Assembly: GCA_905178155.1 (NCBI GenBank)
Contig: CAJINV010000001.1
Location: forward strand, 357,643-421,642
Source: Amoebophrya sp. A120
Taxonomy: Eukaryota > Protista > Dinoflagellata
Length of the DNA stretch: 64,000 bases
Direction of reading: 5' to 3'
A program made the position numbers and the translations under genes. This document shows, piece by piece, positions 1-25,868 of this stretch (the stretch's first letter is position 1; the number at the start of each line of letters is the position of its first letter). A model generated the notes under the pieces. It had not been told where the DNA came from, ran no database searches, and saw nothing but the letters and a program-made list of their open reading frames with translations.

Positions 1-2191
1 GCAAAAACTTTGTCCCAGCGAGCTGGGCGTTCGTGAACAGGATCGCAGACACCACATGATAAATCGCGACACCGACGAGCGACCAGGGAGTTGGAAACAG
101 TAGGTCGTCGTCTTTGCGCCTCACCAGCTCTAGGGCCCGATCAATCTCCGCCAGATGTGCGGAATAGAACATTTCGTCGAAGTACTCTTCAATTATTCTG
201 GTACGCCTTTCCAGCAATGCCATGGTTTCGTTCAGCCCCCGCACGAAGGTGGCCCAGGACCTCTCTTCGCTTCCGATAGTTGTATTTTGACTGGCGAAGT
301 GGAAGTCAGAAGTGCTGCTATTATCATTTGGTTGAAAGCGACGCGCGTGCAAAGCGTCCCAAGCTGTGATCGAATTTGAGTAGTACTTCTCGTCCTCGTA
401 CGGCGGGTCATATACGTGCCCAGTGTCGTCACGAGGCGCGGCCCAGGAAACCCAACTGTTACGGGATCGGTCGAGCCTAGAAATTAAATTGTGACGCTCG
501 CCCGAGGTTCCGGAAAGCGGAGAGCGTTTGATCACCTCCGCGTACTTGCGCGCCAGCTCCACTGCCCGGCGCTCGTCGACTACGATGACAAACTTCTCCC
601 CCGCTTCAGTTCTGTTCAGCAGGGCCTCCTGTTCGGCGTCGTAGGAATCAGTGGGCACGCACTTTGGGTGCAGTAGTTCTCGGGGTTCCGCGCCTACTTC
701 GCGAGCTGCCGCAAGCGCAAGAACATCGCCATCCGCTGGAAAAATAGTTGGCGACGTCAACGAGCTTTTCCAGCTGCAATATTCACGACCTCCGGATTGT
801 TCTACCGCAGTGCTGTTACGCGTCGCATTTTCGCGGCTGTTATGATGATGTCCTGTGCTGTCTTCAGCTCCGCTCCGCGTCTCCTCACCGGGACCGGAGG
901 GCGGCCTCCTCTTCATTTGACAAGGACAGTCAGTCTGCCACTGCAAAACCTGCAGACTGATCGCTGAGCTTTTCGGTTTTTGTCGCGCGAGCTCTGCGTT
1001 GGCTTGCCGTAGGCGCTCCGCAATCTATGGCGATGGCAGAAACTTTTTGCTCAAAAACTTTTTTTTTTTGGCATGTAAATCACCCATCGTGAGAACTAGA
1101 TATGTTTTTTGTGGCGAATATGTCACCCATGAAAAAGGCGGATTTATATGTTTGTTGAGCTAGCTAGTCTGAAGGCAGGAACAGGTCGACGCTGGACGTC
1201 GGTTGCGTCGCGGATTCGGAACCGAATCCGTGGCCACATGAGCACCGGGGACCACCTTCCTCCTGCCTTCAGACTAGCTAGTTACATAGTATGCCGCCGT
1301 AGTGCCTTTATGTAAACAAGACCTGCCGGTAGCAGGTGGCACATACATAGCTTATGGCAAAATCATATGTGGAAAAAAAAAAAGTTTTTGAGCAAAAAGT
1401 TTCTGCCATCGCCATACAATCGGATTCGCGCTGATTACGTAGTCGCAGATCTCGTTCTTGCATATGGAAGACGAAAGCGCCGCACCCGATGAATTTCGTT
1501 TTTCGCCAAAAAGTACACCACTCAACTCCATCGGAGAAGAATCTCCTGCAATCTGTAGTTCTTCTCCTTCTTCGCTTCGGCTTCCATAATTGGGAGCAGC
1601 CGTACTAGAGGGCAGCATTCTCCCGGCTTGTACTCTTCCCGAAGATGTCTGACCTGCTCCGCCTTGCTGCTGCAAACCTGCTACACTTGTTGTCGCCTCG
1701 CCATGATTGTCGCCGGAGGTATGATCGACGGAGTGCGGCGACCATGCGCAGCCCACGTCTTGGTCTACGTCTTGGTCCTTCTCTTCCCGATTCGCATTTT
1801 CTGGAGCAGCAGAAGGCCCCCAAGTCGTTGAGCCGCCTGTGCCAACCGCGACACGCAGAAAACTTTGCGGAGTGGAGATCGGCAGCAGAGTTGCAAGAAC
1901 TGCAGGACCACCTTGCTCCTCGTGCCCCGGAGACGTTTCAGCCTCGTCACTGTCTGATGGATGTTCGATTTCTGCAGCTTCCCACGTCGATGAGGAGAAC
2001 GTGGCCGGTAAAGAACTGCTCGACTTCATCTGCGCGGCTCTTTCCTGCCTTACAGCAGCTTCAGCGAGATACCAACACTTCTGTGTCATCTCCAGTGGAA
2101 AAAGTACCAAAGTCGTGCGCTGCAAGAGACATAGAACGCCATAGTGCATGGAGGAGCGCGAGCCGCCCGCCCGTCTAAAAAACGAAATCAT
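1..2191 (-). CDS. Array gene copy D, 5' part (runs off window), hypothetical protein
   Basis: ATG at 2191. The ORF is joined in frame across element 1026-1416 to AERLRQANAEL. Region 1-~520 is diverged from copy B. Confidence 0.75.
1026..1416 (-). mobile_element. Introner element (TATGG-type), 391 bp, acting as intron
   Basis: ~40-bp TIR TATGGCGATGGCAGAAACTTTTTGCTCAAAAACTTTTTT. TSD CAATC at 1021-1025 and 1417-1421. TSD plus TIR create GT (1417)...AG (1025) on the minus strand, and removal is in frame. Confidence 0.93.
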
Positions 2192-3075
2192 CTCTCTGGA
2201 ACAATGGTCGCCGCACTTCTAGTTGCGACTAAAGCTGCACCGTACCAATTGGGATCCAGACGGACGTGAAGATATTGAAGATGGCATGATAGATTGTCAG
2301 TCTTATTTGTGTTTGTTTCTGATGCCCTTGCATAAGAAACGTCCTCGCGGACTACGACCCGCCGGTCGTGTCTATCCTTGGACGTTTGCAGCACCTTCGT
2401 GGTCACGACTATGCTAGTAATGCTCCTGCTTCCACAATGGCTATAATCTGAATATGTACGGAAAGACGACCCGAAGCGGATGACCTCGAACAAGCCTGCC
2501 TCCGACTCGTATCAGAAAATTTGCGCTCCATGTTCCTCTCTCGAAGAGCCTCGCACACGACGAGTGATCCGAGATCCTGCCACAAACGATCAACCTCGCA
2601 GCGATGGCGCGTAACTTACGATCGTTGTACTGTTGTAAAATAATCATAATTGAACAAGAAAACGAGGACTACTACATGCCAGCACGTAATATGACGAAAA
2701 ATATCACGAAAATATCACGAGGCTCCTGAAGAAATATCACGAAAATCCCCCTGGTCCCTATGCGCCTGATCTTCATACAAGATGCCCGACGAAATTCTAG
2801 CTGCTCGAATGAAAGTATCCAGAAGGATACTTCCGATAAACCCCTTCAAACTGCGGCGCATTAACGAGGAACAGCATTCACGACTTCGTTGCGTATCACA
2901 GCGCGGATTCGCGGAAAAATTGACGCAGCTGCAACATGCTCCGTTCTTGCGGATTTTTCCAGCTGCACAAGAACTGCTGCCCATTTTCTCAACAAGAGAA
3001 GACGACGGATCATGGAACAGTGTTGCTTGTGCGGCCGCTGCGGCTGATGAGTGAGGGTGACAACTACGACTAGAG

Positions 3076-4557
3076 CTAGTTGGTGGAAAAATCAATGGCG
3101 TGTCGAGTGTACCAGTCTGCGAGCAAATCGGCAGGAATCCACTCCTTTGCGCCGCGATTTGTAAAGAGGCTGAGCTTATCAAATGTAAAAGTGTCTGGGT
3201 CTGGAAGGATGTAACCTGTGATGCACATTTCAGAACACACAAAAAACTCTCATGCATAGGTAGCAAAAGCTGCCCATTTTCTGTCATTAAAGTGGGGGAC
3301 TTGTCATGCGGGTTCGGCATTGCGGAAGCTTCTCGAAACCTGTGATGCTAGAGCTTCCATGCCAGACCTTCTGTGTCATGCAGAAACAGCATGACTCTTC
3401 CAGACCCAGACATTTTTGCATTTGATAGAGCTCTTTGTCGGCCTCGGCAACCGTCATCACGACCAGCTTCAACGGCTCGGGTCGTTCCTCTGGCACCTCT
3501 TCTAGGTGGTCTCTGAACATTTCTGTTTCAACTTGCGGTGTCGAGTTTCGAAAATTATCCGCAGTGGTGTTCTTCTTATTACCTGCACGGCTGGGTAGCT
3601 TCCTGCTGTTGGCGACCAGGCGAACCGCCGCCCGGACGGCGTCTCTCACCTGCGCTACGTCCCCCTCGTCGACGGCCAGTATGCCGCGAATGTTCAATCG
3701 GTCGCTCCACTTTTCACAACGCATTAGCATGTGCATCTGGGTGTGGAAAAGCCGGCGCCACCAGCCCCTCAGGCCCGCGCCGAGCAATTCAAACCGCTCG
3801 CGGAAACTATTGCGCTGCGTCTCCGAACGGCTCGTCACGTCGACCACATCGGCCACAACCAAAACCGGCAGACGCCCCGGGCCGAGAGCGTGCTCGAAGT
3901 TCGCGACGGCGGTCGCATTCGCCTCGCGTTGGCTCCAACCGAACCAGCCCTTCCACCCGTGTGGAAGCCGGCCCGCGTTTTTGAGGGAGTACTCCTTCGC
4001 GGCGTCCCACATGCGCCCACTCTCTCCCTCGCCCGTGCACTCGTTCATTCGAAAAGAAAGGGGCGCCGCTGCGACAACGGTCGGGCGCACGTCTGTAGTC
4101 AGGTTGAACCATTGTTTTTGGGCGTCTGCCATCTGCACCCGCTCACCACCAAAGAAGTCGATGCCGTTTTATGCAAATAAAAATGAACTAGTGTTACTGC
4201 AGTTCTTACACACTGTGAGGCAGCAAGACACACAACCTCTGTCATGCCCGAAGTGCTTGATGCGCATCTCTTTCCATGCTGGCCAGGGGCGATTTCACTT
4301 ATGACCTCCGCATTGGTTGGTAATTGCAAGTTTGCTTTGGCACAGCGCAAATTTGTGTTGCCAAGTGTGACTGCAGCACTACTCTTTGTTCGCTTTCTCT
4401 TTGATACCTTGCGCTGCAAAAACATTGTCCCAGCGAGCTGGGCGTTCGTGAACAGGATCGCAGACACCACATGATAAATCGCGACACCGACGAGCGACCA
4501 GGGAGTTGGAAACAGTAGGTCGTCGTCTGTGCGCCTCACCAGCTCTAGGGCCCGATC
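3076..4557 (-). CDS. Array gene copy C, 3' part (5' part lost in gap)
   Basis: Identical to copy B. Removing elements 4170-4406 and 3177-3427 gives ...QRKGIDFFGGERVQMAD...DKELSLFTNRGAKEWIPADLLADWYTRHAIDFSTN*. Confidence 0.75.
3177..3427 (-). mobile_element. Introner element (TATCAAAT family), 251 bp
   Basis: TIR TATCAAATGTAAAAGTGTCTGGGTCTGGAAG / CTTCCAGACCCAGACATTTTTGCATTTGATA. Perfect TSD GAGCT. Removal restores the frame. Confidence 0.92.
4170..4406 (-). mobile_element. Degenerate introner element, 237 bp
   Basis: TAT...ATA ends with decayed TIR (shared GAAC and CTGCAGT blocks). Degenerate TSD CGTTT/CCTTG. Removal of the element plus 5 nt joins the 429-aa and 283-aa ORF frames. Confidence 0.75.
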
Positions 4558-4994
4558 NNNNNNNNNNNNNNNNNNNNNNNNNNNNNNNNNNNNNNNNNNN
4601 NNNNNNNNNNNNNNNNNNNNNNNNNNNNNNNNNNNNNNNNNNNNNNNNNNNNNNNNNNNNNNNNNNNNNNNNNNNNNNNNNNNNNNNNNNNNNNNNNNNN
4701 NNNNNNNNNNNNNNNNNNNNNNNNNNNNNNNNNNNNNNNNNNNNNNNNNNNNNNNNNNNNNNNNNNNNNNNNNNNNNNNNNNNNNNNNNNNNNNNNNNNN
4801 NNNNNNNNNNNNNNNNNNNNNNNNNNNNNNNNNNNNNNNNNNNNNNNNNNNNNNNNNNNNNNNNNNNNNNNNNNNNNNNNNNNNNNNNNNNNNNNNNNNN
4901 NNNNNNNNNNNNNNNNNNNNNNNNNNNNNNNNNNNNNNNNNNNNNNNNNNNNNNNNNNNNNNNNNNNNNNNNNNNNNNNNNNNNNNNNNNNNNN
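4558..4994. other. Assembly gap (437 N)
   Basis: Run of N. Confidence 1.
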
Positions 4995-5582
4995 GAACAA
5001 GCCTGCCTCCGACTCGTATCAGAAAATTTGCGCTCCATGTTCCTCTCTCGAAGAGCCTCGCACACGACGAGTGATCCGAGATCCTGCCACAAACGATCAA
5101 CCTCGCAGCGATGGCGCGTAACTTACGATCGTTGTACTGTTGTAAAATAATCATAATTGAACAAGAAAACGAGGACTACTACATGCCAGCACGTAATATG
5201 ACGAAAAATATCACGAAAATATCACGAGGCTCCTGAAGAAATATCACGAAAATCCCCCTGGTCCCTATGCGCCTGATCTTCATACAAGATGCCCGACGAA
5301 ATTCTAGCTGCTCGAATGAAAGTATCCAGAAGGATACTTCCGATAAACCCCTTCAAACTGCGGCGCATTAACGAGGAACAGCATTCACGACTTCGTTGCG
5401 TATCACAGCGCGGATTCGCGGAAAAATTGACGCAGCTGCAACATGCTCCGTTCTTGCGGATTTTTCCAGCTGCACAAGAACTGCTGCCCATTTTCTCAAC
5501 AAGAGAAGACGACGGATCATGGAACAGTGTTGCTTGTGCGGCCGCTGCGGCTGATGAGTGAGGGTGACAACTACGACTAGAG

Positions 5583-8500
5583 CTAGTTGGTGGAAAAATC
5601 AATGGCGTGTCGAGTGTACCAGTCTGCGAGCAAATCGGCAGGAATCCACTCCTTTGCGCCGCGATTTGTAAAGAGGCTGAGCTTATCAAATGTAAAAGTG
5701 TCTGGGTCTGGAAGGATGTAACCTGTGATGCACATTTCAGAACACACAAAAAACTCTCATGCATAGGTAGCAAAAGCTGCCCATTTTCTGTCATTAAAGT
5801 GGGGGACTTGTCATGCGGGTTCGGCATTGCGGAAGCTTCTCGAAACCTGTGATGCTAGAGCTTCCATGCCAGACCTTCTGTGTCATGCAGAAACAGCATG
5901 ACTCTTCCAGACCCAGACATTTTTGCATTTGATAGAGCTCTTTGTCGGCCTCGGCAACCGTCATCACGACCAGCTTCAACGGCTCGGGTCGTTCCTCTGG
6001 CACCTCTTCTAGGTGGTCTCTGAACATTTCTGTTTCAACTTGCGGTGTCGAGTTTCGAAAATTATCCGCAGTGGTGTTCTTCTTATTACCTGCACGGCTG
6101 GGTAGCTTCCTGCTGTTGGCGACCAGGCGAACCGCCGCCCGGACGGCGTCTCTCACCTGCGCTACGTCCCCCTCGTCGACGGCCAGTATGCCGCGAATGT
6201 TCAATCGGTCGCTCCACTTTTCACAACGCATTAGCATGTGCATCTGGGTGTGGAAAAGCCGGCGCCACCAGCCCCTCAGGCCCGCGCCGAGCAATTCAAA
6301 CCGCTCGCGGAAACTATTGCGCTGCGTCTCCGAACGGCTCGTCACGTCGACCACATCGGCCACAACCAAAACCGGCAGACGCCCCGGGCCGAGAGCGTGC
6401 TCGAAGTTCGCGACGGCGGTCGCATTCGCCTCGCGTTGGCTCCAACCGAACCAGCCCTTCCACCCGTGTGGAAGCCGGCCCGCGTTTTTGAGGGAGTACT
6501 CCTTCGCGGCGTCCCACATGCGCCCACTCTCTCCCTCGCCCGTGCACTCGTTCATTCGAAAAGAAAGGGGCGCCGCTGCGACAACGGTCGGGCGCACGTC
6601 TGTAGTCAGGTTGAACCATTGTTTTTGGGCGTCTGCCATCTGCACCCGCTCACCACCAAAGAAGTCGATGCCGTTTTATGCAAATAAAAATGAACTAGTG
6701 TTACTGCAGTTCTTACACACTGTGAGGCAGCAAGACACACAACCTCTGTCATGCCCGAAGTGCTTGATGCGCATCTCTTTCCATGCTGGCCAGGGGCGAT
6801 TTCACTTATGACCTCCGCATTGGTTGGTAATTGCAAGTTTGCTTTGGCACAGCGCAAATTTGTGTTGCCAAGTGTGACTGCAGCACTACTCTTTGTTCGC
6901 TTTCTCTTTGATACCTTGCGCTGCAAAAACATTGTCCCAGCGAGCTGGGCGTTCGTGAACAGGATCGCAGACACCACATGATAAATCGCGACACCGACGA
7001 GCGACCAGGGAGTTGGAAACAGTAGGTCGTCGTCTGTGCGCCTCACCAGCTCTAGGGCCCGATCGATCTCCGGCAGAGATGCGGAATGGAACATTTCGTC
7101 CAAGTACTCGTCATTCATTCTGGTACACCTTTCCAGCAATGCCGCGCTTTCGTTCACCACCCGGGCCAAGTCGGTTGCGTTCACCGCCCACCGGAACATG
7201 GTGGCCCAGGACCTCTCTTCGCTTCCGATAGTTGTATTTTGAGCGGCGAAGTGGAAGTCAGTGCTGCTATTATCGTTTGGTTGAAAGCGGCGCGCGTGCA
7301 AAGCGTCCCAAGATGTGATCGAATTTGCGTAGTACTTCTCGTCCTCGTACGGCGGGTCATATACGTGCCCAGTATCGTGACGACGCGCGGCCCAGGAAAC
7401 CCATTTGTTATCGCTTCGGTCGAGCCTAGAAATGAAATTTTGACGCGGGAGAGAGTCTCCGCCAAGTGGCGAGCGTTTGATCACCTCCGCGTACTTGCGC
7501 GCCAGCTCCACTGCCCGGCGCTCGTCGACTACGATGACAAACTTCTCCCCCGCTTCAGTTCTGTTCAGCAGGGCCTCCTGTTCGGCGTCGTAGGAATCAG
7601 TGGGCACGCACTTTGGTTGCAGTAGTTCTCGGGGTTCCGCGCCTACTTCGCGAGCTGCCGCAAGCGCAAGAACATCGCCATCCGCTGGAAAAATAGTTGG
7701 CGACGTCAACGAGCTTTTCCAGCTGCAATATTCACGACCTCCGGATTGTTCTACCGCAGTGCTGTTACGCGTCGCATTTTCGCGGCTGTTATGATGATGT
7801 CCTGTGCTGTCTTCAGCTCCGCTCCGCGTCTCCTCACCGGGACCGGAGGGCGGCCTCCTCTTCATTTGACAAGGACAGTCAGTCTGCCACTGCAAAACCT
7901 GCAGACTGATCGCTGAGCTTTTCGGTTTTTGTCGCGCGAGCTCTGCGTTGGCTTGCCGTAGGCGCTCCGCAATCTATGGCGATGGCAGAAACTTTTTGCT
8001 CAAAAACTTTTTTTTTTTGGCATGTAAATCACCCATCGTGAGAACTAGATATGTTTTTTGTGGCGAATATGTCACCCATGAAAAAGGCGGATTTATATGT
8101 TTGTTGAGCTAGCTAGTCTGAAGGCAGGAACAGGTCGACGCTGGACGTCGGTTGCGTCGCGGATTCGGAACCGAATCCGTGGCCACATGAGCACCGGGGA
8201 CCACCTTCCTCCTGCCTTCAGACTAGCTAGTTACATAGTATGCCGCCGTAGTGCCTTTATGTAAACAAGACCTGCCGGTAGCAGGTGGCACATACATAGC
8301 TTATGGCAAAATCATATGTGGAAAAAAAAAAAGTTTTTGAGCAAAAAGTTTCTGCCATCGCCATACAATCGGATTCGCGCTGATTACGTAGTCGCAGATC
8401 TCGTTCTTGCATATGGAAGACGAAAGCGCCGCACCCGATGAATTTCGTTTTTCGCCAAAAAGTACACCACTCAACTCCATCGGAGAAGAATCTCCTGCAA

Positions 8501-9140
8501 TCTGTAGTTCTTCTCCTTCTTCGCTTCGGCTTCCATAATTGGGAGCAGCCGTACTAGAGGGCAGCATTCTCCCGGCTTGTACTCTTCCCGAAGATGTCTG
8601 ACCTGCTCCGCCTTGCTGCTGCAAACCTGCTACACTTGTTGTCGCCTCGCCATGATTGTCGCCGGAGGTATGATCGACGGAGTGCGGCGACCATGCGCAG
8701 CCCACGTCTTGGTCTACGTCTTGGTCCTTCTCTTCCCGATTCGCATTTTCTGGAGCAGCAGAAGGCCCCCAAGTCGTTGAGCCGCCTGTGCCAACCGCGA
8801 CACGCAGAAAACTTTGCGGAGTGGAGATCGGCAGCAGAGTTGCAAGAACTGCAGGACCACCTTGCTCCTCGTGCCCCGGAGACGTTTCAGCCTCGTCACT
8901 GTCTGATGGATGTTCGATTTCTGCAGCTTCCCACGTCGATGAGGAGAACGTGGCCGGTAAAGAACTGCTCGACTTCATCTGCGCGGCTCTTTCCTGCCTT
9001 ACAGCAGCTTCAGCGAGATACCAACACTTCTGTGTCATCTCCAGTGGAAAAAGTACCAAAGTCGTGCGCTGCAAGAGACATAGAACGCCATAGTGCATGG
9101 AGGAGCGCGAGCCGCCCGCCCGTCTAAAAAACGAAATCAT
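5583..9140 (-). CDS. Array gene copy B, complete, 4 exons, ~890 aa hypothetical protein
   Basis: Exons ~9140-8367, ~7973-6914, ~6671-5935, ~5678-5583 join in frame after removing three TIR/TSD elements. Stop TAG at 5583-5585. Hydrophobic N-terminal segment, low-complexity linker, then an ordered-looking C-terminal region. Confidence 0.82.
5684..5934 (-). mobile_element. Introner element (TATCAAAT family), copy in unit B
   Basis: Same as 3177-3427, TSD GAGCT. Confidence 0.92.
6677..6913 (-). mobile_element. Degenerate introner element, copy in unit B
   Basis: Same as 4170-4406. Confidence 0.75.
7975..8365 (-). mobile_element. Introner element (TATGG-type), copy in unit B
   Basis: Same as 1026-1416, TSD CAATC. 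Confidence 0.93.
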
Positions 9141-10024
9141 CTCTCTGGAACAATGGTCGCCGCACTTCTAGTTGCGACTAAAGCTGCACCGTACCAATTG
9201 GGATCCAGACGGACGTGAAGATATTGAAGATGGCATGATAGATTGTCAGTCTTATTTGTGTTTGTTTCTGATGCCCTTGCATAAGAAACGTCCTCGCGGA
9301 CTACGACCCGCCGGTCGTGTCTATCCTTGGACGTTTGCAGCACCTTCGTGGTCACGACTATGCTAGTAATGCTCCTGCTTCCACAATGGCTATAATCTGA
9401 ATATGTACGGAAAGACGACCCGAAGCGGATGACCTCGAACAAGCCTGCCTCCGACTCGTATCAGAAAATTTGCGCTCCATGTTCCTCTCTCGAAGAGCCT
9501 CGCACACGACGAGTGATCCGAGATCCTGCCACAAACGATCAACCTCGCAGCGATGGCGCGTAACTTACGATCGTTGTACTGTTGTAAAATAATCATAATT
9601 GAACAAGAAAACGAGGACTACTACATGCCAGCACGTAATATGACGAAAAATATCACGAAAATATCACGAGGCTCCTGAAGAAATATCACGAAAATCCCCC
9701 TGGTCCCTATGCGCCTGATCTTCATACAAGATGCCCGACGAAATTCTAGCTGCTCGAATGAAAGTATCCAGAAGGATACTTCCGATAAACCCCTTCAAAC
9801 TGCGGCGCATTAACGAGGAACAGCATTCACGACTTCGTTGCGTATCACAGCGCGGATTCGCGGAAAAATTGACGCAGCTGCAACATGCTCCGTTCTTGCG
9901 GATTTTTCCAGCTGCACAAGAACTGCTGCCCATTTTCTCAACAAGAGAAGACGACGGATCATGGAACAGTGTTGCTTGTGCGGCCGCTGCGGCTGATGAG
10001 TGAGGGTGACAACTACGACTAGAG

Positions 10025-13000: not shown

Positions 13001-13490
13001 GATCGTCGCCGGAGGCATGATCGACGGAGTGCAGCGACTCGTAGCCCAAGTCTTGGTCCACGTCTTGGTCCTTCTCTTCCCGATTCGCATTTTCTGGAGC
13101 AGCAGGAGGCTCCCAAGTCGTTGAGCCGCCTGGGCCAACCGCGACCCGCAGAAAACTTTGCGGAGTGGAGATCGGCAGCGGAATTGCAACTGCAGGACCA
13201 CCTTGCTCTTCTTGCGCCGGAAAAGTTTCAGCCTCATCACTGTCTGATGGCTGTTCGATCTCTCCTGCGCCTTCCCGCGTCGATGAGGAGAACGTGGCTG
13301 GTAAAGAACTGCTCGACTTCTGCGCGGCTCTTTCCTGCCGTACAGCAGCTTCAGCGAGATACCAACACTTCTGTTTCATCTCCAGTGGAAAAAGTACCAA
13401 ACTCGTACGTTGAAACAGACGTAGTAGAAAGCCATAGTACAACATGGAGAAGCGCGAGCAGCCGCCCGCTCGTCTAAAAAACAAAATCAT
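10025..13490 (-). CDS. Array gene copy A, complete, 4 exons, diverged 5' part
   Basis: The 271-aa and 459-aa ORFs are joined in frame (ISANPMAERL) by removing 12436-12722. Downstream introns are as in copy B. Stop at 10025. Confidence 0.82.
10126..10376 (-). mobile_element. Introner element (TATCAAAT family), copy in unit A
   Basis: Same as 3177-3427. Confidence 0.92.
11119..11355 (-). mobile_element. Degenerate introner element, copy in unit A
   Basis: Same as 4170-4406. Confidence 0.75.
12436..12722 (-). mobile_element. Introner element (TATGG-type, distinct from 1026-1416), 287 bp
   Basis: Imperfect ~43-bp TIR TATGGAAGCGTCAGGTTTGAAATTCTCAAAGTTGAAAAAAAAAT. TSD ATTCG/ATTGG. Absent from the paralogous copies. 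Central 67-bp palindrome. Confidence 0.9.
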
Positions 13491-13940
13491 CTCTCTGGAA
13501 CAATGGTCGCCGCACTTCTAGTTGCGACTAAAGCTGCACTGTACCAGTTGGGATCCAGACGGACGTGATGATGATGAAGAAGATGGCATGACTGTCAGTT
13601 TTATTTGTGTTTCTGATGGCCTTACACACGTAACGTCCTCCTCGCGGACTACGACTAGTGTGTCTATCCTTGGACGCTTACAGAACCTTAGTGGTCACGA
13701 CTATGCTAGTAATGCTCCTGCTTCCACAATGGCTCTAATCTGAATAAGTACGGAAAGACGACCCGAAGCGGACGACCTGGAACAAGCCTGCCTCCGACTC
13801 GTATCAGAAAATTTGCGCTCCATGTTCCTCTCTCGAAAGGCCTCGCAAACACCGAGTGATTCCAGATGATCCTGCCACAAACGATTAACCTCGTAGCGAT
13901 GGCGCGTAACTAACGATCGTTGTCGATACTGTTGTAAAAT

Positions 13941-14429
13941 GGGGCCCCCTAATGGGGAACCCTAAACCCTGAAACCTAAACCAAACCCGGGGAGATCCCG
14001 CCGCGACGGATGCCCATCTTGTCAAGTGCGATCCCTACATGCATAGTTTTTTGGAAAAGGAAAGCAAAAAGAGAAGGATGAAGCAAAAAAAATTGAGCGA
14101 GGCGAGCGAATCTCTCGGCGGCCTATGAAGGACAATCCAGTGGCCAACCGGAAGTCCAACACAGTAGGGCTTCAGCTGCGCTGGCTCTAAACCTGTACAG
14201 AGTACAGACCTACGTACGTATGCGCCACACCTTCTCTCATCCGAAGTCGGGACGCATCCGAACTCTAAGCAAAGCGAGAAAACGATAAGGCAAGCGAGGA
14301 GCGATCCAACTCGGGCATGCGAATCAGGTAGAAGAGAGAAACCGAAAAAGCGAGCTTTTCCGAGGACCGACAAAGCATCTCATCACTGTGCAAAAACTCA
14401 TATCCCTCATCACTGTGCAAAAACTCATA
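13941..14429. mobile_element. 489-bp retroposon-like insertion with 18-bp TSD
   Basis: Flanked by TCGATACTGTTGTAAAAT at 13923-13940 and 14430-14447. The paralogous site in the other units is empty. Telomere-like CCCTAAA repeats near one end and a 27-bp tandem duplication at the other. Confidence 0.8.
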
Positions 14430-14948
14430 TCGATACTGTTGTAAAATAATCATAATCAAACAAGAAAACGAAGACAACTACATGCCAGCACGTAATATCA
14501 CGAAATATCACGAAAATATCACGAGGCTCCTGACGAAATATCACGAAAATCCCCCTGGTCCCTATGCTCCTGATCTTCCTGCAAGATGCCCGACGAAATT
14601 CTAGCTGCTCGAAAGAAAGTATCCAGAAGGATACTTCCGATAAACCCCTTCAAACTGCGGCGCATTAACGAGGAACAGCATTCACGACTTCGTTGCGTAT
14701 CACAGCGCGGATTCGCGGAAACATCGGGTTTGAAGAGGTACTTAGCGACCACCAAAACGTAAAATATACTCAGCACGACTTCCACTCAAAAGATGTGGAG
14801 CTATCGCTTCCGGAAAAGAAAAAATAGAAGTAGAACTGACAAATGCCCGAGCTGTGTCTTTCTTGTCCCATGATCTTCAAATGCATATCTTATACCATCT
14901 TCATTTTTCTTGAGACGAAACTAAAGTGCGTCCCTGCAGTCGTGGCCC

Positions 14949-16416
14949 TCATAATTGTTCCCCCGTATCCCCGCCAATGACCTCTGTCCACATCTTCTCG
15001 CAGAATTCCGTGGCGGCGGTCTCGCGGTTTTCCCAGTCCGCCTTCATCGCCGACTCCAAAGTGGTCACTAGCCCGTCGCAGGTTCCCTTTGCGTCCGCCG
15101 GAGCTCCCGCGCACATCTTCTTGCCGTAGTCTGGGCCGGATTTCGCTTTGAACTGCAAATAATTTGAAGCAAGTGCTTTGTTTCTCATATTTGTTATGGG
15201 CACCATTGTGTTTTTTTTTTCAATGCTGTCTCACTAGAACCCGAGTGCCCAGATCATGTGCAGCTCCTTCGACAAATGAGCAGACTCGTATCTCTGATGT
15301 CTACCTCGAACTAGAAGACAAGCATCACCGTCATCATTTATCCTGCACTTGGGGGGGACGTGCGGAGGGGTTGATGGGGTTCAAGTTCACAATGAATAAA
15401 ACAAAGCTTTGTAACTCGTACCAACGACGGCCTGAGCACCCCATTTTTGCAGTCGACGTTGAAGAGAATCTGAAACACGCTTTTGAAGGCCTCTGCCTCG
15501 TTAATCTGCACTTCCTGGCACTTGCCCGCCCAGTCCTCCCACACCTCGTTTACAATGTCGCACTTGACCCAGAAAAACATGTTGTGCCCGGCCCCGTAGC
15601 TGCCTCCGTCCCGGCCGTCCAACGAGTACCCCTCAGCGCACTGGTATTGTGCGCCTTTCACCGGGTATACTGAGTAAAAACGTCCCCATACCATACTTAG
15701 TCAAGATCCGCTAGACAAATCAACCAGCTATGGTTGTTTCGCATGACAGGTTTGTCCTGGTAGTGTAAACCTGTTTAGCTAGTTCCGAAGCAGCACAGAT
15801 CTAGCATATCATGCTGATTCTAGCATCACAAATTCCAAAACACGACTCGAAGATGCAGATGGTTCTCATGAGGCTCCGCATGAGGAACTTTTTTGGCATG
15901 CAAATTTGCATCACAACTCTGGGGTGGGAACGTTTTGACTTCGGATACCGGGTCCGTGATGTTCGCAAACACCGCGTTGTGATTCTCCGGTCGGGGTGCC
16001 GGGCACCGGGGTTTCGGCACGCACCCGTACTCCTCGATGACCGTTTTGAAGTACCCCGCTTCCTGGCAAACCATCTTGGGCGGCTCGCCGACAAAGCCCT
16101 TCTGGCAGGCCAGTTGCAGTTCGTACCCCGGGTCAAACTCGTCCTTCCGCGTGTCGTCGCGGGGAATGTACGTGTTCTTGGGGAAAACGGTCGGCATAAT
16201 GCACTTGACGTCCTTGGTACTATGATGTGTCTCTTCGCGGCGACGGGCATTTGATATTTTTGAACTTGTACCGCTACGCTTGGAACTACCGAAAAACAAC
16301 CGGGAAGTCGACACAGAGGAGGTTCCAGAAGTCCTCGCAGAAACCTCCTGCGTCACAGCGAGGAACACCGTGAGGCGTCCAATTCTCCCCCGCGTCTCCC
16401 GACGCCGCCCCACCAT
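14949..16416 (-). CDS. Probable secreted protein with two Sushi/CCP-like modules and a C-terminal saposin-like helical module
   Basis: Motifs C..P.FPKN...F.PG...LACQKGFVG.P.KMVC and CPAPRPENH...YQCAEGYSLDG...C....W.....C. Introns 15666-15947 (introner) and ~15153-15439 (GT-AG) restore the frame. The start codon is uncertain. Confidence 0.65.
15666..15947 (-). mobile_element. Introner element, 282 bp, non-canonical intron
   Basis: TIR TATACTGAGTAAAAACGTCCCCA vs TATCCGAAGTCAAAACGTTCCCA. Perfect TSD CCGGG. Removal gives ITDPVKGAQYQC. Confidence 0.88.
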
Positions 16417-17113
16417 GATTGGAGGACCTCGACCGGAGGAAGTTCTCGCCTGTGGACTAAAATTTGGAACGGACGAGGAAATGGCAAGTTGTTGAGTTTC
16501 TGTCTCGAAGAAAAATTGTTGACCCTTCTCGAACAACAATCAAAAATTGTAGCATCAAACTGGTCACGGAAGATCTTCTTCTTTTTTCCCGAACAACGAC
16601 AGGCTGGAAAATTTGGCCAGTTGCTTCAGACTATGCGCGGCGAAGGGAATTCGTTCAATTTGTCGTTGAAATTTTCGTTCCAAGCAATGTGACTTGTTTC
16701 CCGGAGACAACGGGAAAGCAAAAGATAAAGATTTGCGGTGGCAATGTCCTCGACTGATGCTCACCGCAGAGCGCACCATGCGGAATCACACGAGAAAGGG
16801 GTAGGGAAAAGTCGCGCAAGACAACAGAAAGTGAGAAGATAAAACTACACATTGCAGCTGGTAGAATGATCTACAGAAAGATTAACATATGCTGTGCTGG
16901 GGGTAGAAAAATTCATCACTGAAGTAGACGTAGAGCAAGTTCACTTGCAAACCACTTCAAGAATACTTCGTATGTATATCGTGTAGAGGTACAACACGAG
17001 GTACGTTCAAGTTGATTGCATAGAAATACGCGCAATGGGACTAAAGTACTTCAAAAAGTAGTATGAAATTCACAGAGGCCGTGGCTATTTCCAGAACTTT
17101 CCTACTTTTCATT

Positions 17114-20100
17114 TTATGCATATTTCGCGTCTTTCGTGACAAACCACAAATTTAGCACAAACACCACGTACAGGACAGCGAAGACCGTTGTCGTGTTGCT
17201 ATCCAGCGTGTACTCTCGCACGGCAGCCCAGCCCACCAACAGGAGTAGCGTCCCCGCCATCCAGATCGTGCCGCACTCCAGGCCCGGGGAACGCAAGGGG
17301 ATCGTCACGACGCTTCCACTACTGGCGAAGACGTAGCACTTGAGGAACCAGGGCAGAGCCAACGCCACAAATGCATTCTGCACGTTTGACCCCAGCGCGT
17401 TCGCGATCGCCATGTTGCTCTTCCCGTCCTTGTATCAAATGCAAAAGTGTCTGGGTCTGGAAGATTCTGAGACTTGCCATGCATGTTTTGTATGACCCAG
17501 AATGTCTGTACTGCACGACCTAGCATCACAGATTTTTAGAGGGCTTCCTGATGCCTATTCCGCATTACAAATGCCCTCTCCACGTAGCACAGTCTGGGCT
17601 CCTCTTCCTGGTCATGCAATACAGATTTTTTTGGAGTCCAAAGATAGCATGACAAGTTTGGATCCTTCCAAACCCAGACATTTTTACAGTTGATACCTTG
17701 CTCGCCAAAAAAGAGGCCCACACGTTCGGCAAGGAGGTTCCCGCGGCACAGAGCGTGGCCCCCAGGAAGCCGACGGGGATTTGGTACGCTTTGGCCAGGT
17801 GCTGGACGGTGGAAACCATCAGGTTGGAGAAAATCCCGAGCCACAGCATGGACAACAAAAAGCACCAGTACCACCGGTGCTGGCGACTCGTCTCCTTCGG
17901 GTCGCACCAGCTCATGGTGATATCGTACAGAAAGTTGATCGGCGCTTCAAACACGAGCAGTAACTTCCGCGCGGTGCCGATGGTCTCCTCCTGCAAGTCG
18001 TTGGTTAAGTCCATCAAAGCGTCATTTGACATCACGCTCGCCCGCCGCCGCAACTTGGTGCTGGCGACGCGAGGAAGCATCTGCGGACTGGATTCGGTCG
18101 AGGAAGCGATCGACGACCGCAAAATCGGTACTACTGGTGGATTGTTATTCCTGTAACCGCTCAACACCTGGATTCGCTCCGGCGGGGCGTGTGCTGGTCT
18201 ACTGTTGCTATTCATTTTGTAGGTCGTAGTACCATTGTTGTATCTACTTTTTTCTTCAAGCGAAAGAAAGTTGTCGCCGCTCCCTGCGGTCGTGGTCCCT
18301 GAGGTAGTTATTTGCTGGCGACGTGCAAGTTGTGAAGAAGAACCGGGCCGGTTGTAGTAGTTACCGTCATCGCTACTGGCCGTAGTTCCGGATGTCGCGA
18401 GATTGGGGCCCTGCTGCATGTAGATCGGGAGATTGTACTTGAACGGTCCACCGCTGGTGCCCTGAGTTTGCGATGGTCTAGCTGGAAGTGGTTGTTGTGC
18501 GGTCATCTCAATACGAGCGGAAGTGGACCCCAGATGAACGTCGTGTTCTGACGGTGCCGAACCCCCTGCTCCACCAACAAATTGGCCCGCACCCTGCAGC
18601 TGCTGCCCCGGTGTAGTTGTAGTAATACTTCCCGGGCCCCCGATCTGACCCCCGATGCCGAAGGTCATCTGCGTTCTGCGCAGCTTGGCCTGCTCCTCCA
18701 ACTCGCACTCCACTGGCAACAGGTCGCGAATCAACCGCTCCTTGTCCTCGAAGCGCGCGAACTCCAGCACTAGCACGACTTTCTCGCCGTAGCTCCCTCG
18801 CACCTGCACTTGCACCTTACGGCTGCTGGGGTCCGCGTCTTTGAGGCAAATAATGTCATCGGAAGAAACCCCGGTGGTTTGGTGCCGTGCGTACGTCTTC
18901 GTATACTTTTTCGCCTGTTTCTTCGGACTCTGACTACCCGCTTGGTTGTGGTTGTTGTTTCTTTCCGTGTTCGGACTGATTTTTTCTGCTCCAGGAAAAA
19001 ACTGCTCCGGGGGAGGGGCCGTCTGATTGTATCGGTTGTACGGCTGAACATTATTTATTGCTGCCGTCGACAGGTTCTTATTTCCGCCATAATTGCTCTG
19101 TTCCGTGCTGGTGCGCGAAAATCCACCAGACAGCTGCTTTTGAAGGAGCGGCTGTTGCAAGGGATGATGTTTCGTAACCTTATTACTCTGTCGCTGTTGT
19201 CCACCACCAGTACCAGCCAAAGCCTGATACAGCATGCCGCCCTCGGTGGCGGTTCCAATACTGCTTCGCATCGTTCCGTCAGAGGACTCTGCTGACTGGC
19301 TCAGCTGCTTCTCCTTAAGATTGTAAAAACCTTGATTTTCCTGCTTTGCCGCTACTTCGAAGGGAACACTTATCCCGTTCGCTGCTCCTGGATAGGTACT
19401 GGTGTGGTGCAACATTGCGACGTGGTCACCACCACCACTAGCCTGGTAAGCCTCTATGCGCGGCATGTCTGGGATGTCGTCACTGTCCTTCCGTGAAGAG
19501 GCGGGCAGCGACGGGCTCCGGCGCTGGATCACACCAGTCGCATTGTCTTGCTTCCACACCCCACCAGGTCTGGTGCCATTCTGCGCAAGAAATGGCTTGT
19601 CGAAGTGCGCAGGACCTCCGGTCCACTTATTGTTCTGGTCCATCTGCGATTTGAGTTTCAGCTGTAAGCCGGTGATGAAAATCTTGCCGTCCTTCCGCAC
19701 GAGCAGGTGGTCGTGGAACCGACTGTCGTGGGAATCGATCATCCGATTCCGCCGGATCACCTTCACCCGCACGCGCGCGACCTCTGCGCCGTCCCGCAGC
19801 ATTTTGGGCGGGACTTGCTGCATCAAGGATTCTTGCCCGAATTCCGGCGAGGCCACGACGTGCTTCGCCCGTTGCAGCGGGCTGCTGTCGGTGCTACCAC
19901 CGCTCGTCGCCCCGCCGATGGAAGAGGGCGGCGGCCGAAGATACAGGGTGTTGCTGTAGTTGCTCTTGCTGTCGGCCGTGCTCTGGGATGAACTGCCGAA
20001 AAGCAATGGCGCAGTTAACGGAGCTACGGTGGCCGCGGTCGTCCTTTCCGATGGCGCTTGCTGTAGTCCAGCTGCCGGTTGGCTGCTGTAGGTTGAAGTT

Positions 20101-21839
20101 CTTGACGCGCGAGAAAGTGGGAGCTGCGGCAAAGGTGAATTCTTCACACTACTTCTTCGGATGGACGGCAACTGCAATGTGCTGAACGCTCCTCCGAGCG
20201 GAGGAGATGATGAATTCGTCTGCGCAATTATTTGTTCCCCGACTGCTGCTGCAGGAACTAAAGGAGGTTTGTTTTCCTTGTCTTGTTCCGTGAAAATTTC
20301 GCTCTGTTTCTGTTCCGGCGAGGCAGCTATTCCGAACAAGTTGTCGATGTCCGAGAGACCGGGGCGGTTCGCGGATTCCTGTCGGTTCTGCGCGAATGTG
20401 ACGGGGTCCTCGATGCTGCTGTCTACTGAGGCCTGGATGAACGATCCCTGCCGGCTGTCGTCCTTGCTGTTTAGCTCCTGCCTGTCGAACAATTCCTTAA
20501 ATTTCGCTTCCTTTTCCTGTTGCACATCAGTCGCGGTAGTTGTGACACCTGCGCGTTCACCTGCTCGCGCAGAAGCTGCGGAATTGTTGTTCGCTGCGCT
20601 CCCAGCATTCGCGTTCGACGTCGTCCCTAGAGCGAAATAGTTGAAGGCGGAGTCCTCGTTTGTTCCTCCCGCCGCCCCGGGTACAACGGCCAACGCTCCG
20701 CTCACATCTTGCGAGAGTGTCGGCGCGAGCACGAGCGTATCGAAGGATCCCGGGATGAAGGGCGCGGACGAGGTGAGTTGCTCGTTGATCTCCGTGATCT
20801 TGCTCAATTGCTTCGCGCGGAATTGTTCGAGACCACCCAACTGGTCTCCTCCGGCGGATGCTGGTCCTTCGGCGGAGGCAGTTCTGGAGCCGGCGTTGAG
20901 AATCTCCTCTTCCAGTTCCGCATTGTCGTCCTCCTCCGTGGTATCGTCCTCTGGGAAAAAATACGCCGTTGAGCCCACGCAAACCGCGTACAAAATCGCG
21001 CAGCTAAGCAAGACCCCGCTGTCGACTGCGCCCACTTCTCCCTTGAAGAAGAGATAAGCTAGTAGCACGATGGAGAGGGCGTAGAAGCCGCAATCGCGGC
21101 GAAAGGAGACCACCGAGAGCTCCAGGGGCATCTCCGGGCACGCGTACACCGCCGCGGCCACGATGGCCAGCAGGTTGAACACCTGCGTGCCGACCACCTG
21201 CGTGACCCCGACGTCCGAGGGAATCAGGAAGAGCGATACCAAATTCGTGATCAGCTCCGGGCCGTTGCACCCCAGAGCGAGGAGCGTCGCCCCGGCCACG
21301 TCCTCGGGAATGTCAAATTCCTCTACCACCACCTCGATGGCGGGCACCAGCCACTCGTCCGTGACGGAAACTTGGGCGTAGAAAATGTAAATCACGACCA
21401 GCCACCAAATCCAGCGCCCGTCCTCCTCGACGATCTTGATTTTCTCCTCCACTTCCTCATCCGTTCTTGCGCGGTTGTCGCTGTCTTCAGCCGGAGTTGA
21501 GGATGTCAAGAGGAGCTGCGCAAGGTCCTGCTGTTCCGAAGTCGTGGACGACTGTGATTGCTTTTCTGTGCTGTCATCAACATCTTCATCTGCTCCGGAG
21601 ATCTTGGCGCTTGTTGCAATAAGGAGAACTGCTGGGGGTCGCTTATTTGGTTCTACTACTTCAGTCGCGTTTGCAAGGGCTACGCTTTGACTTTCAGCAG
21701 GACCTGACGTTGCACCGCTGCTCGTGTCCGGATTTTTCATGGTCGCCGACGCGGCTCTCGCATGCTCCGGGCAGAGCACGAGTATGTTGCTAGCCGATGC
21801 CTGGATCAGCAGCAGAAACTTTCGTACAGCAGACAGCAT
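17114..21839 (-). CDS. Cation/Ca2+ exchanger, NCKX (SLC24)-like, with very long cytosolic loop
   Basis: Alpha-1 repeat DVAGATLLALGCNGPEL...GTQVFNLL. Alpha-2 repeat GATLCAAGTSLPN...ASKDGKSNMAIANALGSNVQN, reconstituted across the introner at 17433-17695. Confidence 0.92.
17433..17695 (-). mobile_element. Introner element (TATCAAAT family), 263 bp
   Basis: TIR TATCAAATGCAAAAGTGTCTGGGTCTGGAAG. Perfect TSD CCTTG. Forms a GT...AG intron that splits the conserved alpha-2 motif. Confidence 0.95.
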
Positions 21840-23031
21840 GTCCTCGTGGCTTGTTTACCAGTTCCCGGCGCTGACGGAGTGACGTCACAAGATCGCTTCC
21901 ACCTTGTTCCCAGGCTGGACTGTTGCTCGCGTGGTCCTTATGTTTCTTTCATGTTGAAGATTCATCTTGTCGCGTAGGCGTACTATTCTCAATACTTTGA
22001 ATAAACCTTGTCATACGATGAGGAAAATGAAAAGCCAAAATTTCCTGTAGTTTTGTTGTAAATAGAAGCTGTTTCCTGTTGTTCAGAAATTGCTCAAACG
22101 CTCGCTTTTCTTGTACATATTCTGCAGGAGCGGCTAGGGCATCGATACAAGTCAATGCTTGTCGAAAAATATAAACGGTTTACGGTTTTAGATTTCATAT
22201 ATCTTCTTTATGTTCAGGTGATTCGTCGAAGTCCGATCGATGAGCTTGTAGCTTTGAGCAGACCGAATTTCAAGATTTGGTAGTGATCTCAGGAAGGAAA
22301 GCCCGAACTGGCATTCGAGAAGCTTTTCTTGAGCTCCTCAGGTTGGAGCGTCACCGAGGATGCGGAAGCGCAAAGCTGTTGACCGATCCGTGCCTTAAAT
22401 GCCACATTCATCACATACATCTGATTTCAGCCTGACGGTGAAACAGAAACTTCCACATTACTTATTACATCGATCGGCGCACACCTGAAAGCAGCAACTA
22501 TTCTTGTTTTTCCGGCGCATGAACATCAGCTGTCGCAGCAGCGTGAAAGAATACACGACGACGCTGTCACGGCACTCTTCGTCCGCGAGACCTCCCAGCT
22601 GCAGTCGTGTGTACGAATGATGAATGAAAATCTTCTCATTGTCATTCTCCTGGCTAATATGATTTCTTTCCTTAGATTTTAGAGCGCAGTCAGTGGGTAA
22701 TGTCGTTGCGTGTGCGTAGAAATATCAAGAAGATGAATGGTCCTGCCTCAGCATGAACCACACGAAGTTGGCATTATCTATGTAGTTTCGTCGTTAGATT
22801 TAGGACGCGATCGTACAAGATCTTGATTGACACACATGACGCAGAAGAGGCGATAGTTGAGGACAGCACAGGACCGGCGTAGTTGCAACGACGTCGATTG
22901 AAGCTGAAGGACCAGCGTTTTTGTGAAACTTCATCACATAAAAATTCTTTAGATTTCATCGCGACCAGAGCTCCTTCGGGAAACAAGTCGGAGCTCTTGA
23001 AGCGCCTCCCGTCCTGCTTGCAGCCTCTGCC

Positions 23032-25868
23032 TCACGCCGCGGCCTCTTGCACGACCACCCGCAGGGTCTGTCTCCACGAGGCGGCACTGGGCGGCCCGCA
23101 CCGGGCGCCGTGGTAGCAACTCCGGAAAACGGCGACGCCTGGCGCCAGGGCGACAAATTTGAAGGCCACTTTCAGCACCGTGTGGCCCGGATGAAAGTTC
23201 AGGTCAAATTCGCGGTGCAGGTAGAAGACATCCTGTGCGACGACGTCTTCGCGGTCGATTGCAAAACGCCACTCGTTCTCTGTTTGTTTCCATAAGGGTG
23301 TTAGACTTAAAGAGCTGAAATGGAAAACAAGGCATAGGATTAGATAGCATGATGTGCTAAAAAGCGTATTATGATATTGCAAATGCAAGAGTGTTCATCG
23401 ATTCGTATCAATTATACCGTCAGCGACATCCTCAAGCTCGACGAACAGCACTGCATCTCCAACTGTCAAAGACAAATCCTCCGTAACGTTCGCGCTAATT
23501 TCCACCGTGTTCCCCGTGTGAAAACCGGCAACTTTTCGCGCGCTGAGCTCGTCTTGGTACCTGTAGATGTACAACCTTATAACAGCAACAGAGATCTTCA
23601 CTGACGATAGAAGGCCAAGGCAGAAAGAGAAACAGAAACACTGACTGCTGCAAACGTAAAAAGACCCCAACCAGTAAAGCCTTTACGTGGCCCCATGGCT
23701 CCCGGAAGCTTCGTGCTCCGCCTCTGCTTGCGCGTGGCGAAGCAAGTCTGGGACTGGCGGGTTTTCTTTTATGACAAAGCTACACGACGACGCCTCGCTG
23801 CCCTCCAGGCTGATCGCGGGGAACAGCGGGTAGCTCTTCGGGATGTCTGGGAGCGACCGCGCGTCGGCTGAAAACTTTCCGTTTATCCAAAACGAAAGCT
23901 TCGCTTGTGGCTGCGACGCGTCGAGCAAGACGCCGAGGGTATCTGTGATTTTTCACCACATGCTGCACAAAAGCCGTGACCGGCGTACTATTTTTAGGGG
24001 CTATTTTTATTGTCGAAAAAGAATGAATCAAGATAAGCCCCTGAGGAACCAATGACACGAGATGTTGAGACTTTGTTTTCGCCTTCCTCGAAAAACGTCA
24101 ACTGTACCTCCTGGCCTGAAGTGCCTACCCTGTGCCAAGGTGACGCAATGACCCTCGTTTTCCTCGACGGACTGATTGATGTTGATTCGTGTTTCCACAC
24201 CCCGCGGAACCACACCAAATTTGATATCCACGCCGGCAGTCTGAATTTCAATTTTCGGAGACCAAAATAAGGACCGAGCAACACTCTGCCTACTATAAAC
24301 CATAACCATTTCTATTCGCCAAGAGGAAGAGGAAGAGCAAAATCAAAAAGCATATGCATAAGGATAAGCACGACCACCTCAACCAATAAAAAGCCCTTCC
24401 AAGAAACCTGCTGTTGCGGCCCGGGCTCTGCTGTGTTCAGGAACTCCCAGTAGTGCTTCCCACTCGAAAAGCCTTTGACGCTGAGCAACATCCCAGTCCC
24501 CGTCCCCGACCTCACATAGGCCCCCGGCTCGGCCTCCAGAAACCCGCTGCGGTTCGCCCCAAGACAGGAAACGTCCACCACAAAGCACTGCGTGTTGTTA
24601 CACGCGTTAATATTAGCACCGTCCTGAAACTGCTGCATCGACGCCGCTTTGCTGCCGCTGCGACTGCCCGGGCGAGATCCGGTTTTGCTACCGGAAGACC
24701 GCTGTCTCGAGGCAGGTGCTGCTGCTGGGCCCTTGCTGCTGGAGGACGTGGACGTCGACGGTTGAAGATTTTGGTGCAGTTTCCCGGCTGTCGCAATCGT
24801 GCCGTGTGATGTCGTGCCGTCTTTAATACTGGTCGTTGTGCTCGCCTGCAGTTGCTGTGCGTGTTGCGTTTGTCCGGGTCGTGCGCCCGCGGCGTGATAC
24901 TGCCGCGTCCCGTTCGGCGTGCTGACCACCCGAATGGTGTGCGGCTGTTGCTGTTGCTGTATTTGCATCCCATTTGTATTCATCCCGGCTAAATGCGCCA
25001 TCGATTGGCTCTGGGTGAGCACATCCACGTGATGATCATTGGGCGTCGTATGGATTGCAAAAATGGGTTGGTCTGGAAGATTCCGAGACCTGTCATGCAG
25101 ATTTTCCATGATCCATGTCACCTGGAATGCAGGACCTAGCATGACAGATTCTGCGGGATCCCTATCATGCCTATCCTGCATGAGAAACTTCCTCTCAACT
25201 TCGTCAAAAGTGGGCAACTTTTGGAATTCATGCAACACAGATTTTTGCATGATCCAGAATTAGCATCACAAGCTCCAACTACCTTCCACCAGACCCAGAC
25301 ATTTTTACATTTGATACGTTGCATTAGACGACAAAACGGCCGCCTGCTGGTACTGCTGGTACGACCGCGGCGGAGGAGGGAAGTGCAGCGAGGCGACCGA
25401 CGCCGTGCCTGTCAGTTGTTGCGGCCCGGACGGCATGCGATAGTACTGGGGCGTGTAAGGCTGCGCAGATGTACTAGAGAGCAGATTGCTGCTGAAGCCC
25501 GCAGGCGTGCCCGCCGTACTACTGCTCACAGCAGTGGTAGCCTGCTGATGTTGTTGTCCAGGAGCTCCTGCACCATGGAGAAACTCACCCTGCGCCTGGA
25601 GCCACGAACTTTGGAGATGATGCGCAGTTGAGGTGGTGGAGTAGGGGGACGGGGTTGCGACGGCTACCGGCGGCTCGACCTTCATGTCGAAGATGGAGGC
25701 CCCGACGTTTTTGCTCGCGGCGGACCAATTCGTACCCCCCGCGCCGCCGAGACTCACCCGCAGCGCATCCGGCTGCAGCCCCACGGTCACGCCCTTCAGA
25801 GCCGGGGGGGCGGCCAGTAGCCGAGTGTTCATGCCGGACAAAGTGCCGGTGCTGCGGCTCCGCTGCAT
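23032..25868 (-). CDS. SPRY/B30.2-domain protein with low-complexity N-terminus and a C-terminal beta-rich (possibly chagasin/Ig-like) module
   Basis: SPRY motifs GFSSGKHYWEF, IKFGV, GDTLGVLLD, LSFWING and LFPAISL. Phase-compatible introns: 25049-25316 (introner), 24241-24407, 23943-24107, 23561-23686, 23280-23417. The start codon is uncertain. Confidence 0.78.
25049..25316 (-). mobile_element. Introner element (TATCAAAT family, one end decayed), 268 bp
   Basis: Right TIR CCAGACCCAGACATTTTTACATTTGATA. TSD CGTCG/CGTTG. Removal gives SSNATPNDHH in frame. Confidence 0.85.

Follow-up and report, generated by a model that had tools for sequence, protein, structure and literature searches.

Exonic TAT…ATA transposons of Amoebophrya sp. 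A120 appear to be removed from transcripts as element plus five nucleotides, with a terminal hairpin as the probable guide

The stretch of 64,000 nucleotides (nt) analysed here from the dinoflagellate Amoebophrya sp. A120 (contig CAJINV010000001.1, positions 357,643 to 421,642; hereafter the window) carries seven insertions that begin with TAT and end with ATA, are flanked by a 5-bp target site duplication (TSD), and interrupt coding exons, in all seven cases on the minus strand. The original prediction for this DNA described seven distinct transposons serving as introns with splice sites borrowed from the TSD. All seven are indeed present, but they belong to about five families, and those at 1026, 3177 and 4170 recur in tandem copies.

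Positions 1-14700 form a tandem array with a 4442-bp unit, containing at least four partial or whole copies of a gene of 887-891 amino acids (aa) that gave no match in Pfam, as well as an N gap at 4558-4994. Elements (named here by their first position) E7975, E6677 and E5684 lie in copy B (5583-9140, minus strand, 887 aa), and E12436, E11119 and E10126 in copy C (10025-13490, minus strand, 891 aa). The 3' halves of the copies are identical in the assembly, and the paralogous copy P0001 and one contig of the RNA run X2 (see below) carry further variants, so some assembly collapse or conversion is likely. Beyond the array, a gene for an NCKX-type Na/Ca exchanger (17114-21839, minus strand, 1485 aa, Pfam PF01699) is interrupted by E17433 within its alpha-2 repeat.

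A blind scan for TAT..ATA pairs with a 5-nt flanking repeat, a terminal inverted repeat (TIR) of at least 13/20 and a length of at most 500 bp returned nine matches (all but one of the seven elements, plus three tandem duplicates), and no match in any of ten dinucleotide shuffles. The scan thus recovered E1026 (1026-1416, 391 bp, 44-bp perfect TIR, TSD CAATC/CAATC; inferred intron 1022-1417 with ends GT..TT), E3177 (3177-3427, 251 bp, TSD GAGCT/GAGCT; inferred intron 3173-3428, CT..CT), E12436 (12436-12722, 287 bp, TSD ATTCG/ATTGG; inferred intron 12432-12723, TT..AA), E15666 (15666-15947, 282 bp, TSD CCGGG/CCGGG; intron 15662-15948 at the inferred register, GT..CG), E17433 (17433-17695, 263 bp, TSD CCTTG/CCTTG; intron 17429-17696, GT..AG) and E25049 (25049-25316, 268 bp, TSD CGTCG/CGTTG; intron 25045-25317 at the inferred register, GT..AC). 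The seventh, E4170 (4170-4406, 237 bp; inferred intron 4166-4407, GT..AC), was placed by hand, its TIR being degenerate and its TSD holding two mismatches (CGTTT/CCTTG). A 5-bp TSD therefore flanks 7/7 elements, imperfectly in three (4170, 12436, 25049), and a TIR of at least 8-20 nt starting with TAT characterizes the set, in degenerate form in E4170.

E3177, E17433 and E25049 form one family of about 70% similarity, in which E3177 has the orientation opposite to the other two; by blastn the remaining four elements showed no similarity to this family or to each other. E1026 has an identical copy at 7975-8365, E3177 has tandem copies at 5684-5934 and 10126-10376, and E4170 at 6677-6913 and 11119-11355. 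Three further candidates were set aside: 16971-17122 has a weak TIR and is traversed by an X2 contig without a joint, and 44800-46107 and 59015-60421, which share sequence with long open frames, were ascribed to chance.

Insertion itself can be read from paralogs. The insertion sites of E1026 and E12436, each occupied in a different paralogous copy, are separated by 7 bp, and each site is empty in the other copy (copy C is empty at the E1026 site, copies A and B at the E12436 site); removal of each element with one TSD leaves 59-nt sequences that differ by one base. With TIRs, a TSD of fixed length, empty sites and no coding capacity, the elements have the hallmarks of miniature inverted-repeat transposable elements (MITEs), and are non-autonomous TIR transposons that enter exons and duplicate 5 bp of the target. 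They are also members of the published class of A120 introners. As described by Farhat et al. 2021 (PMC7789003), these have inverted repeats starting with TAT and direct repeats of 3-5 nt (5 bp in the legend of Fig. S19), the mean non-canonical A120 intron being about 240 nt long with ends such as GT-AC and GT-CG. The window elements share the host, the TAT inverted repeat, the border direct repeat, the removal from transcripts and, for the 3177/17433/25049 family, the occurrence as a repeated family. The original prediction had already noted that introners with inverted and direct repeats are described in Amoebophrya; A120 TIR introners with integrase-like open reading frames (ORFs) have also been reported (PMC12130899).

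Four RNA runs were compared with positions 9900-26000, a stretch that does not include E1026 or its copy at 7975. The informative run, X2, consists of assembled contigs and was taken as RNA from its five joints at canonical GT-AG introns (15153-15421, 23280-23417, 23561-23686, 23943-24107 and 24241-24407), the donors of which are GTAC, GTAT, GTAA, GTAC and GTTT. Its contigs contain four introner joints, and each skip equals the element plus five nucleotides (element+5): 242 nt from 11113 to 11356 at the E4170 copy 11119, with an ambiguity of 1 nt; 287 nt from 15659 to 15947 at E15666; 268 nt from 17427 to 17696 at E17433; and 273 nt from 25043 to 25317 at E25049, where the upstream TSD letter is kept. 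Spliced RNA, the check proposed in the original prediction, thus covers 4/7 window elements (one via a paralogous copy), and 4/4 covered junctions are removed exactly as element+5. At E15666 a nearby GT-AG option is out of frame and was not used in RNA.

Protein comparison extends the same rule. The NCKX model with element+5 removed is letter-for-letter identical (100%) to P0007, a protein annotated as Amoebophrya sp. A120, and the tandem-gene model built in the same way aligns to its paralogs without gaps, bearing out the expectation that removal of an element plus one TSD gives the right protein. P0001 and three paralogs show a gap-free NP[IL]AE across 1026, which fits element+5 (NPIAE); a GT-AG intron would need element+2 and would add a residue (NPIIAERL) lacking in all four, and was rejected. 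At 3177, where element+5 leaves only 33 codons and frame alone is not decisive, element+5 alone preserves the C-terminus that the four paralogs have in common, and a GC-AG option (+6) that loses this C-terminus was likewise rejected. At 4170 a conserved RKG in paralogs fits element+5. Homology therefore supports +5 at 1026, 3177 and 4170, and the empty site in paralogs supports it at 12436. Both 1026 and 17433 had been proposed to be GT-AG introns; this held for 17433 (X2 joint and P0007) but, because the GT-AG reading of 1026 adds a residue absent from the paralogs, 17433 is the only one of the seven. The non-canonical ends proposed elsewhere (GT..CG at 15666, GT..AC at 25049, no GT at 3177 or 12436) agree with the ends inferred here, and use of other GT-AG sites nearby, which would have counted against the proposal, was seen neither at 15666 in RNA nor at 1026 by homology.

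To place these few loci in a larger sample, the exact 24-nt TIR pattern of the 3177/17433/25049 family was searched for and gave at least 151 loci, each of them in the same assembly (JACKZZ01 contigs); a scan of viral contigs gave 0 matches. This assembly is likely from the same or a very close strain, because the exons flanking one of its elements, L131, match an A120 protein over 41 aa. The counts that follow refer to the matches listed, which comprise 137 distinct elements, 114 of them with a good partner TIR ending in ATA. An exact 5-nt flanking repeat was present in 98/114 copies, compared with 13 copies at 2 nt and one each at 3, 4 and 7 nt (0-1 for each of 3, 4, 6, 7 and 8 nt). A codon model trained on ORFs of the window was then applied to 112 elements. 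In 49 of them both flanks were coding-like, and the frame offset across the element was +5 modulo 3 in 43 of these (permutation mean 18.6, maximum 33 in 10,000), a test that cannot separate +5 from +2 or +8; over all 112 elements it was +5 modulo 3 in 73, and the 63 poorly scored elements that were dropped divided 30, 19 and 14 among the offsets.

Several features of this family stand beside the frame result. Intron phases in the 43 copies are biased (24/10/9, chi-square p=0.007; phase 0 with the cut at -1/+4, see below), possibly because target choice leans weakly towards a palindromic R-N-Y pattern that fits codon structure. Within a single element the two TIR arms often come from different subfamilies, with mismatches at positions 4, 5, 7, 10 and 15, which suggests recombination between copies, and positions 1-3 pair in 98-99%. 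Two loci, L042 and L070, are about 480-500 bp long and possibly nested.

An in-frame stop lies inside 42/43 of the copies that passed the frame test, which bears on whether the RNA joints reflect splicing at all. Direct repeats that flank a hairpin are a classic setting for template switching by reverse transcriptase, and the joints might also come from transcripts of element-free alleles or paralogs; the contig joined at 11113 does carry eight other letters, matching P0001, and X2 has no DNA-run control. We consider such an artefact the least probable of the explanations weighed here. Besides the stops, conserved proteins such as NCKX can be made only if removal is exact, and the exons between 14,100 and 26,000 are free of substitutions in X2, so that it represents the same strain at 15666, 17433 and 25049.

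The letters at the intron ends bear on the claim that splice sites are borrowed from the TSD. Among the 43 copies, G occupies intron position +1 in 10 (background 29.5%, p=0.41) and AG the 3' end in five (p=0.23). GT-AG or GC-AG ends, as in U2-type introns, occur in 1/7 window elements and 1/43 family copies (GT-AG), and 23 copies lie in the orientation of transcription, 19 in the opposite one and one is unclear. With no enrichment of GT or AG and with both orientations in use, the TSD does not supply recognition signals in this family, and this part of the original prediction is not supported; any signal that is needed likely sits in the symmetric TIR, since the TSD letters are at background and orientation is unbiased. 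For the window elements taken alone the idea fares somewhat better, with GT at +1 in 5/7 (Fisher p=0.02 against the 10/43 family copies), and a weak preference for G at +1 may exist in some families. Since direct and inverted repeats are also organised in this way in 15% of canonical A120 introns (PMC7789003), older or other families may be drifting towards GT-AG.

The same figures decide how much credit an ordinary or relaxed spliceosome deserves that reads GT/AG-like signals co-opted from the TSD and selected, as in Micromonas, Aureococcus and Florenciella. Beyond the window elements and the 15% of canonical introns just mentioned, some in-frame GT-AG lies within -10..+12 nt in 17/43 copies; against it stand the 26/43 copies with none, the single GT-AG found at the register, the background level of G at +1, and the GT-AG or GC-AG alternatives left unused at 15666 (RNA) and at 1026 and 3177 (homology). 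We regard this explanation as improbable, and as largely refuted for the 3177/17433/25049 family. A two-step route through nested GT-AG introns (stwintron-like) was set aside by inspection, as its second step would still be non-canonical.

Perfect TSDs cannot reveal where within the duplication the cuts fall, but imperfect ones can, as the original prediction had pointed out. Let u be the number of upstream TSD bases inside the intron, with 5-u downstream. The joint from 11113 to 11356 is compatible with u=0 or 1, and that at 25049 with u=0-3. The two TSD copies of L131 are unlike at position 5, where only u>=1 gives the residue present in the A120 protein P0008; its match to L131 over 41 aa holds only in that case. 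If a single register holds, u<=1 from the first locus and u>=1 from L131 together give u=1, and the intron is likely N-UAU…AUA-NNNN, with one cut 1 nt ahead of the inverted repeat and the other 4 nt beyond it (-1/+4). A protein search with an exon of another locus, L074, brought up nothing but the ORF call of the same contig and is silent on the register. Alternatively, any position inside the TSD might be used, so that -1/+4 would be a coincidence of two loci, which are all that bound the register; the Fig. 3 legend of Farhat et al. (PMC7789003) does call the sites variable. We think this very improbable, given that the joints at 11119 and 25049 keep upstream letters 1-4, that position 5 in L131/P0008 comes from the downstream copy, and that T stands at +2 in each of the nine top A120 classes of that paper's Table S4.

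At the -1/+4 register the TIR supplies an invariant U at +2 and A at +3, leaving +1 and the acceptor dinucleotide free, and the same U and A occur in four of the five canonical donors of the window. Terminal pairing is predicted for most elements, with the first three pairs at P>0.5 in 38/43 family copies and 5/7 window elements. Structure-defined splicing, as suggested in the original prediction, is plausible. A broad reading, to which we assign a probability of roughly 0.6, is a sequence-blind route that would read only the terminal UAU/AUA hairpin, in either orientation, and cut at a fixed -1/+4 that undoes the 5-bp duplication, so that any exonic TAT…ATA insertion would be silent at once. 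Once a TIR transposon has inserted into an exon and duplicated 5 bp of it, the UAU/AUA hairpin would form in the RNA in vivo, and the cuts that remove element+5 would fall 1 nt ahead of it and 4 nt beyond it. The catalyst would be either a spliceosome that lacks U1 and uses the hairpin as a ruler or a non-spliceosomal machine convergent with that of euglenids.

On the first of these catalysts, the one we favour, we put about even odds. A modified U2-type spliceosome lacking U1 would measure from the hairpin instead of reading GT-AG, with the branch point predicted at an invariant A located at -5 or -7 relative to the 3' cut. It is favoured because A120 retains nearly all spliceosomal proteins together with U2, U4, U5 and U6, with U1 small nuclear RNA undetected (PMC7789003); because strain Kv, in contrast, has U1 and mainly canonical introns (PMC12005148); and because the MITE-derived non-canonical introns of Fritillaria set a precedent in requiring the U2 spliceosome (bioRxiv 10.1101/2025.08.15.670264).

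The second catalyst, the chief rival, would keep the same geometry and use a structure-specific endonuclease and an RNA ligase, as proposed for euglenids, releasing circles. The unconstrained +1 position and acceptor dinucleotide and the function of elements in both orientations would suit it. The signature tested in Euglena, 5'-N3CDG…CH'GN5-6|R, is also shaped alike, as a stem whose 5' overhang is short and whose 3' overhang is longer, with circles reported (PMC12501133), and a route by RNase III plus ligase has been proposed for diplonemids (PMC12621601). We hold this version to be possible but rather doubtful: the invariant U+2/A+3 matches the canonical donors here, the first exon base shows no purine bias (21/43 copies), unlike in Euglena, and the absence of U1 tracks with these introns across strains.

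Comparison with known systems separates what is shared from what is particular here. Relative to the A120 introners as published (PMC7789003), organism, start of the inverted repeat, repeats and intron ends are the same; that paper has direct repeats of variable length and leaves the border relative to the hairpin variable or open, whereas we find a strict 5-bp TSD, exact +5, no orientation bias or letter preference, and likely -1/+4. The nonconventional introns of euglenids (PMC12501133, PMC11282704) resemble those described here in their terminal stem, short 5' and longer 3' overhang, and borders that can slide within direct repeats; they differ in overhangs of N3 and N5-6 with CDG/CHG motifs and an exonic purine, compared with N1-UAU…AUA-N4 without purine bias here, and circles have been shown there alone. 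Fritillaria borealis (bioRxiv 10.1101/2025.08.15.670264, PMC11282704) likewise has MITE-derived introns with TIR and TSD and non-GT-AG ends on a genome scale, but prefers AG-AC/AG-AT ends, conserves U1 and has demonstrated U2 dependence, whereas in A120 the ends are free and U1 is undetected. The introners of Micromonas, Aureococcus and Florenciella (PMC9860276, PMC11282704) are also non-autonomous DNA transposons that serve as introns and, in most families, leave the mRNA without net change; they co-opt a real GT/GC or AG from the TSD or insertion site, which the elements here do not need and for which their TSDs are not enriched, the 5/7 window elements with G at +1 being a partial exception.

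Several observations weigh against the reading we favour. All RNA joints come from the assembled contigs of one run without a DNA-run control, raw-read runs X9-X11 having 4, 0 and 0 reads on the stretch; X2 has no joint covering 10126 (equivalent to 3177) or 12436, and 1026, 3177 and 12436 have no RNA joint. The family sample is narrow, being one young family selected by an exact pattern, and 6/49 coding-flanked and 33/63 poorly scored copies gave other offsets; the excess of G at +1 in the window elements also departs from it. Terminal pairing is predicted at P<=0.01 in E4170 and about 0.3 in E12436, yet both are apparently removed, and a branch-point A paired in a stem would be awkward for a spliceosome. 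The register draws on two loci, each with a caveat: the first is one RNA contig from a paralogous copy known without its own DNA, and the second compares the annotated protein P0008 with the DNA of another assembly. The Table S4 classes, moreover, were possibly shaped by aligner choices, and the same paper describes splice sites as variable relative to the hairpin (PMC7789003).

Elsewhere in the window, an insertion of about 505 bp at approximately 13925-14447, in the intergenic region of tandem copy C, has a direct repeat of about 16-17 bp on either side and a short internal tandem repeat near one end, and looks retroposon-like; loose ends of X2 contigs suggest other copies. A large TAT..ATA element (53693-55321, 1629 bp) with a perfect TSD (TGACA), a TIR of about 72-90 nt and internal palindromes lies upstream of a 1283-codon ORF (49633-53484), apparently outside coding sequence, and its two ORFs had no Pfam match. 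An uninterrupted ORF of 4112 codons (28427-40765, minus strand) without a Pfam match, and several other ORFs of more than 1200 codons, contain no introners. A 17-bp satellite array lies at about 41900-43000 and a 146-bp tandem repeat at 43146-43647, and Rfam gave 0 matches in the 64-kb window.

While the class of element is already known, what is added here is a sharper rule: a 5-bp TSD, removal of exactly +5, either orientation, no letter preference, and likely -1/+4. In the Amoebophrya and Syndiniales literature we found neither this rule nor an account that fixes register or machinery, although figures (Farhat Figs 3, S19-S25) and subscription papers (e.g. Roy 2023, Henriet 2019) may hold or bear on it. 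Tens of thousands of non-GT-AG introns must be removed in A120, and the rule makes the machinery responsible testable. A fixed, sequence-blind and orientation-free register would explain how exons have been invaded genome-wide without lucky target sites and, if true, would correct splice-site tables and gene models.

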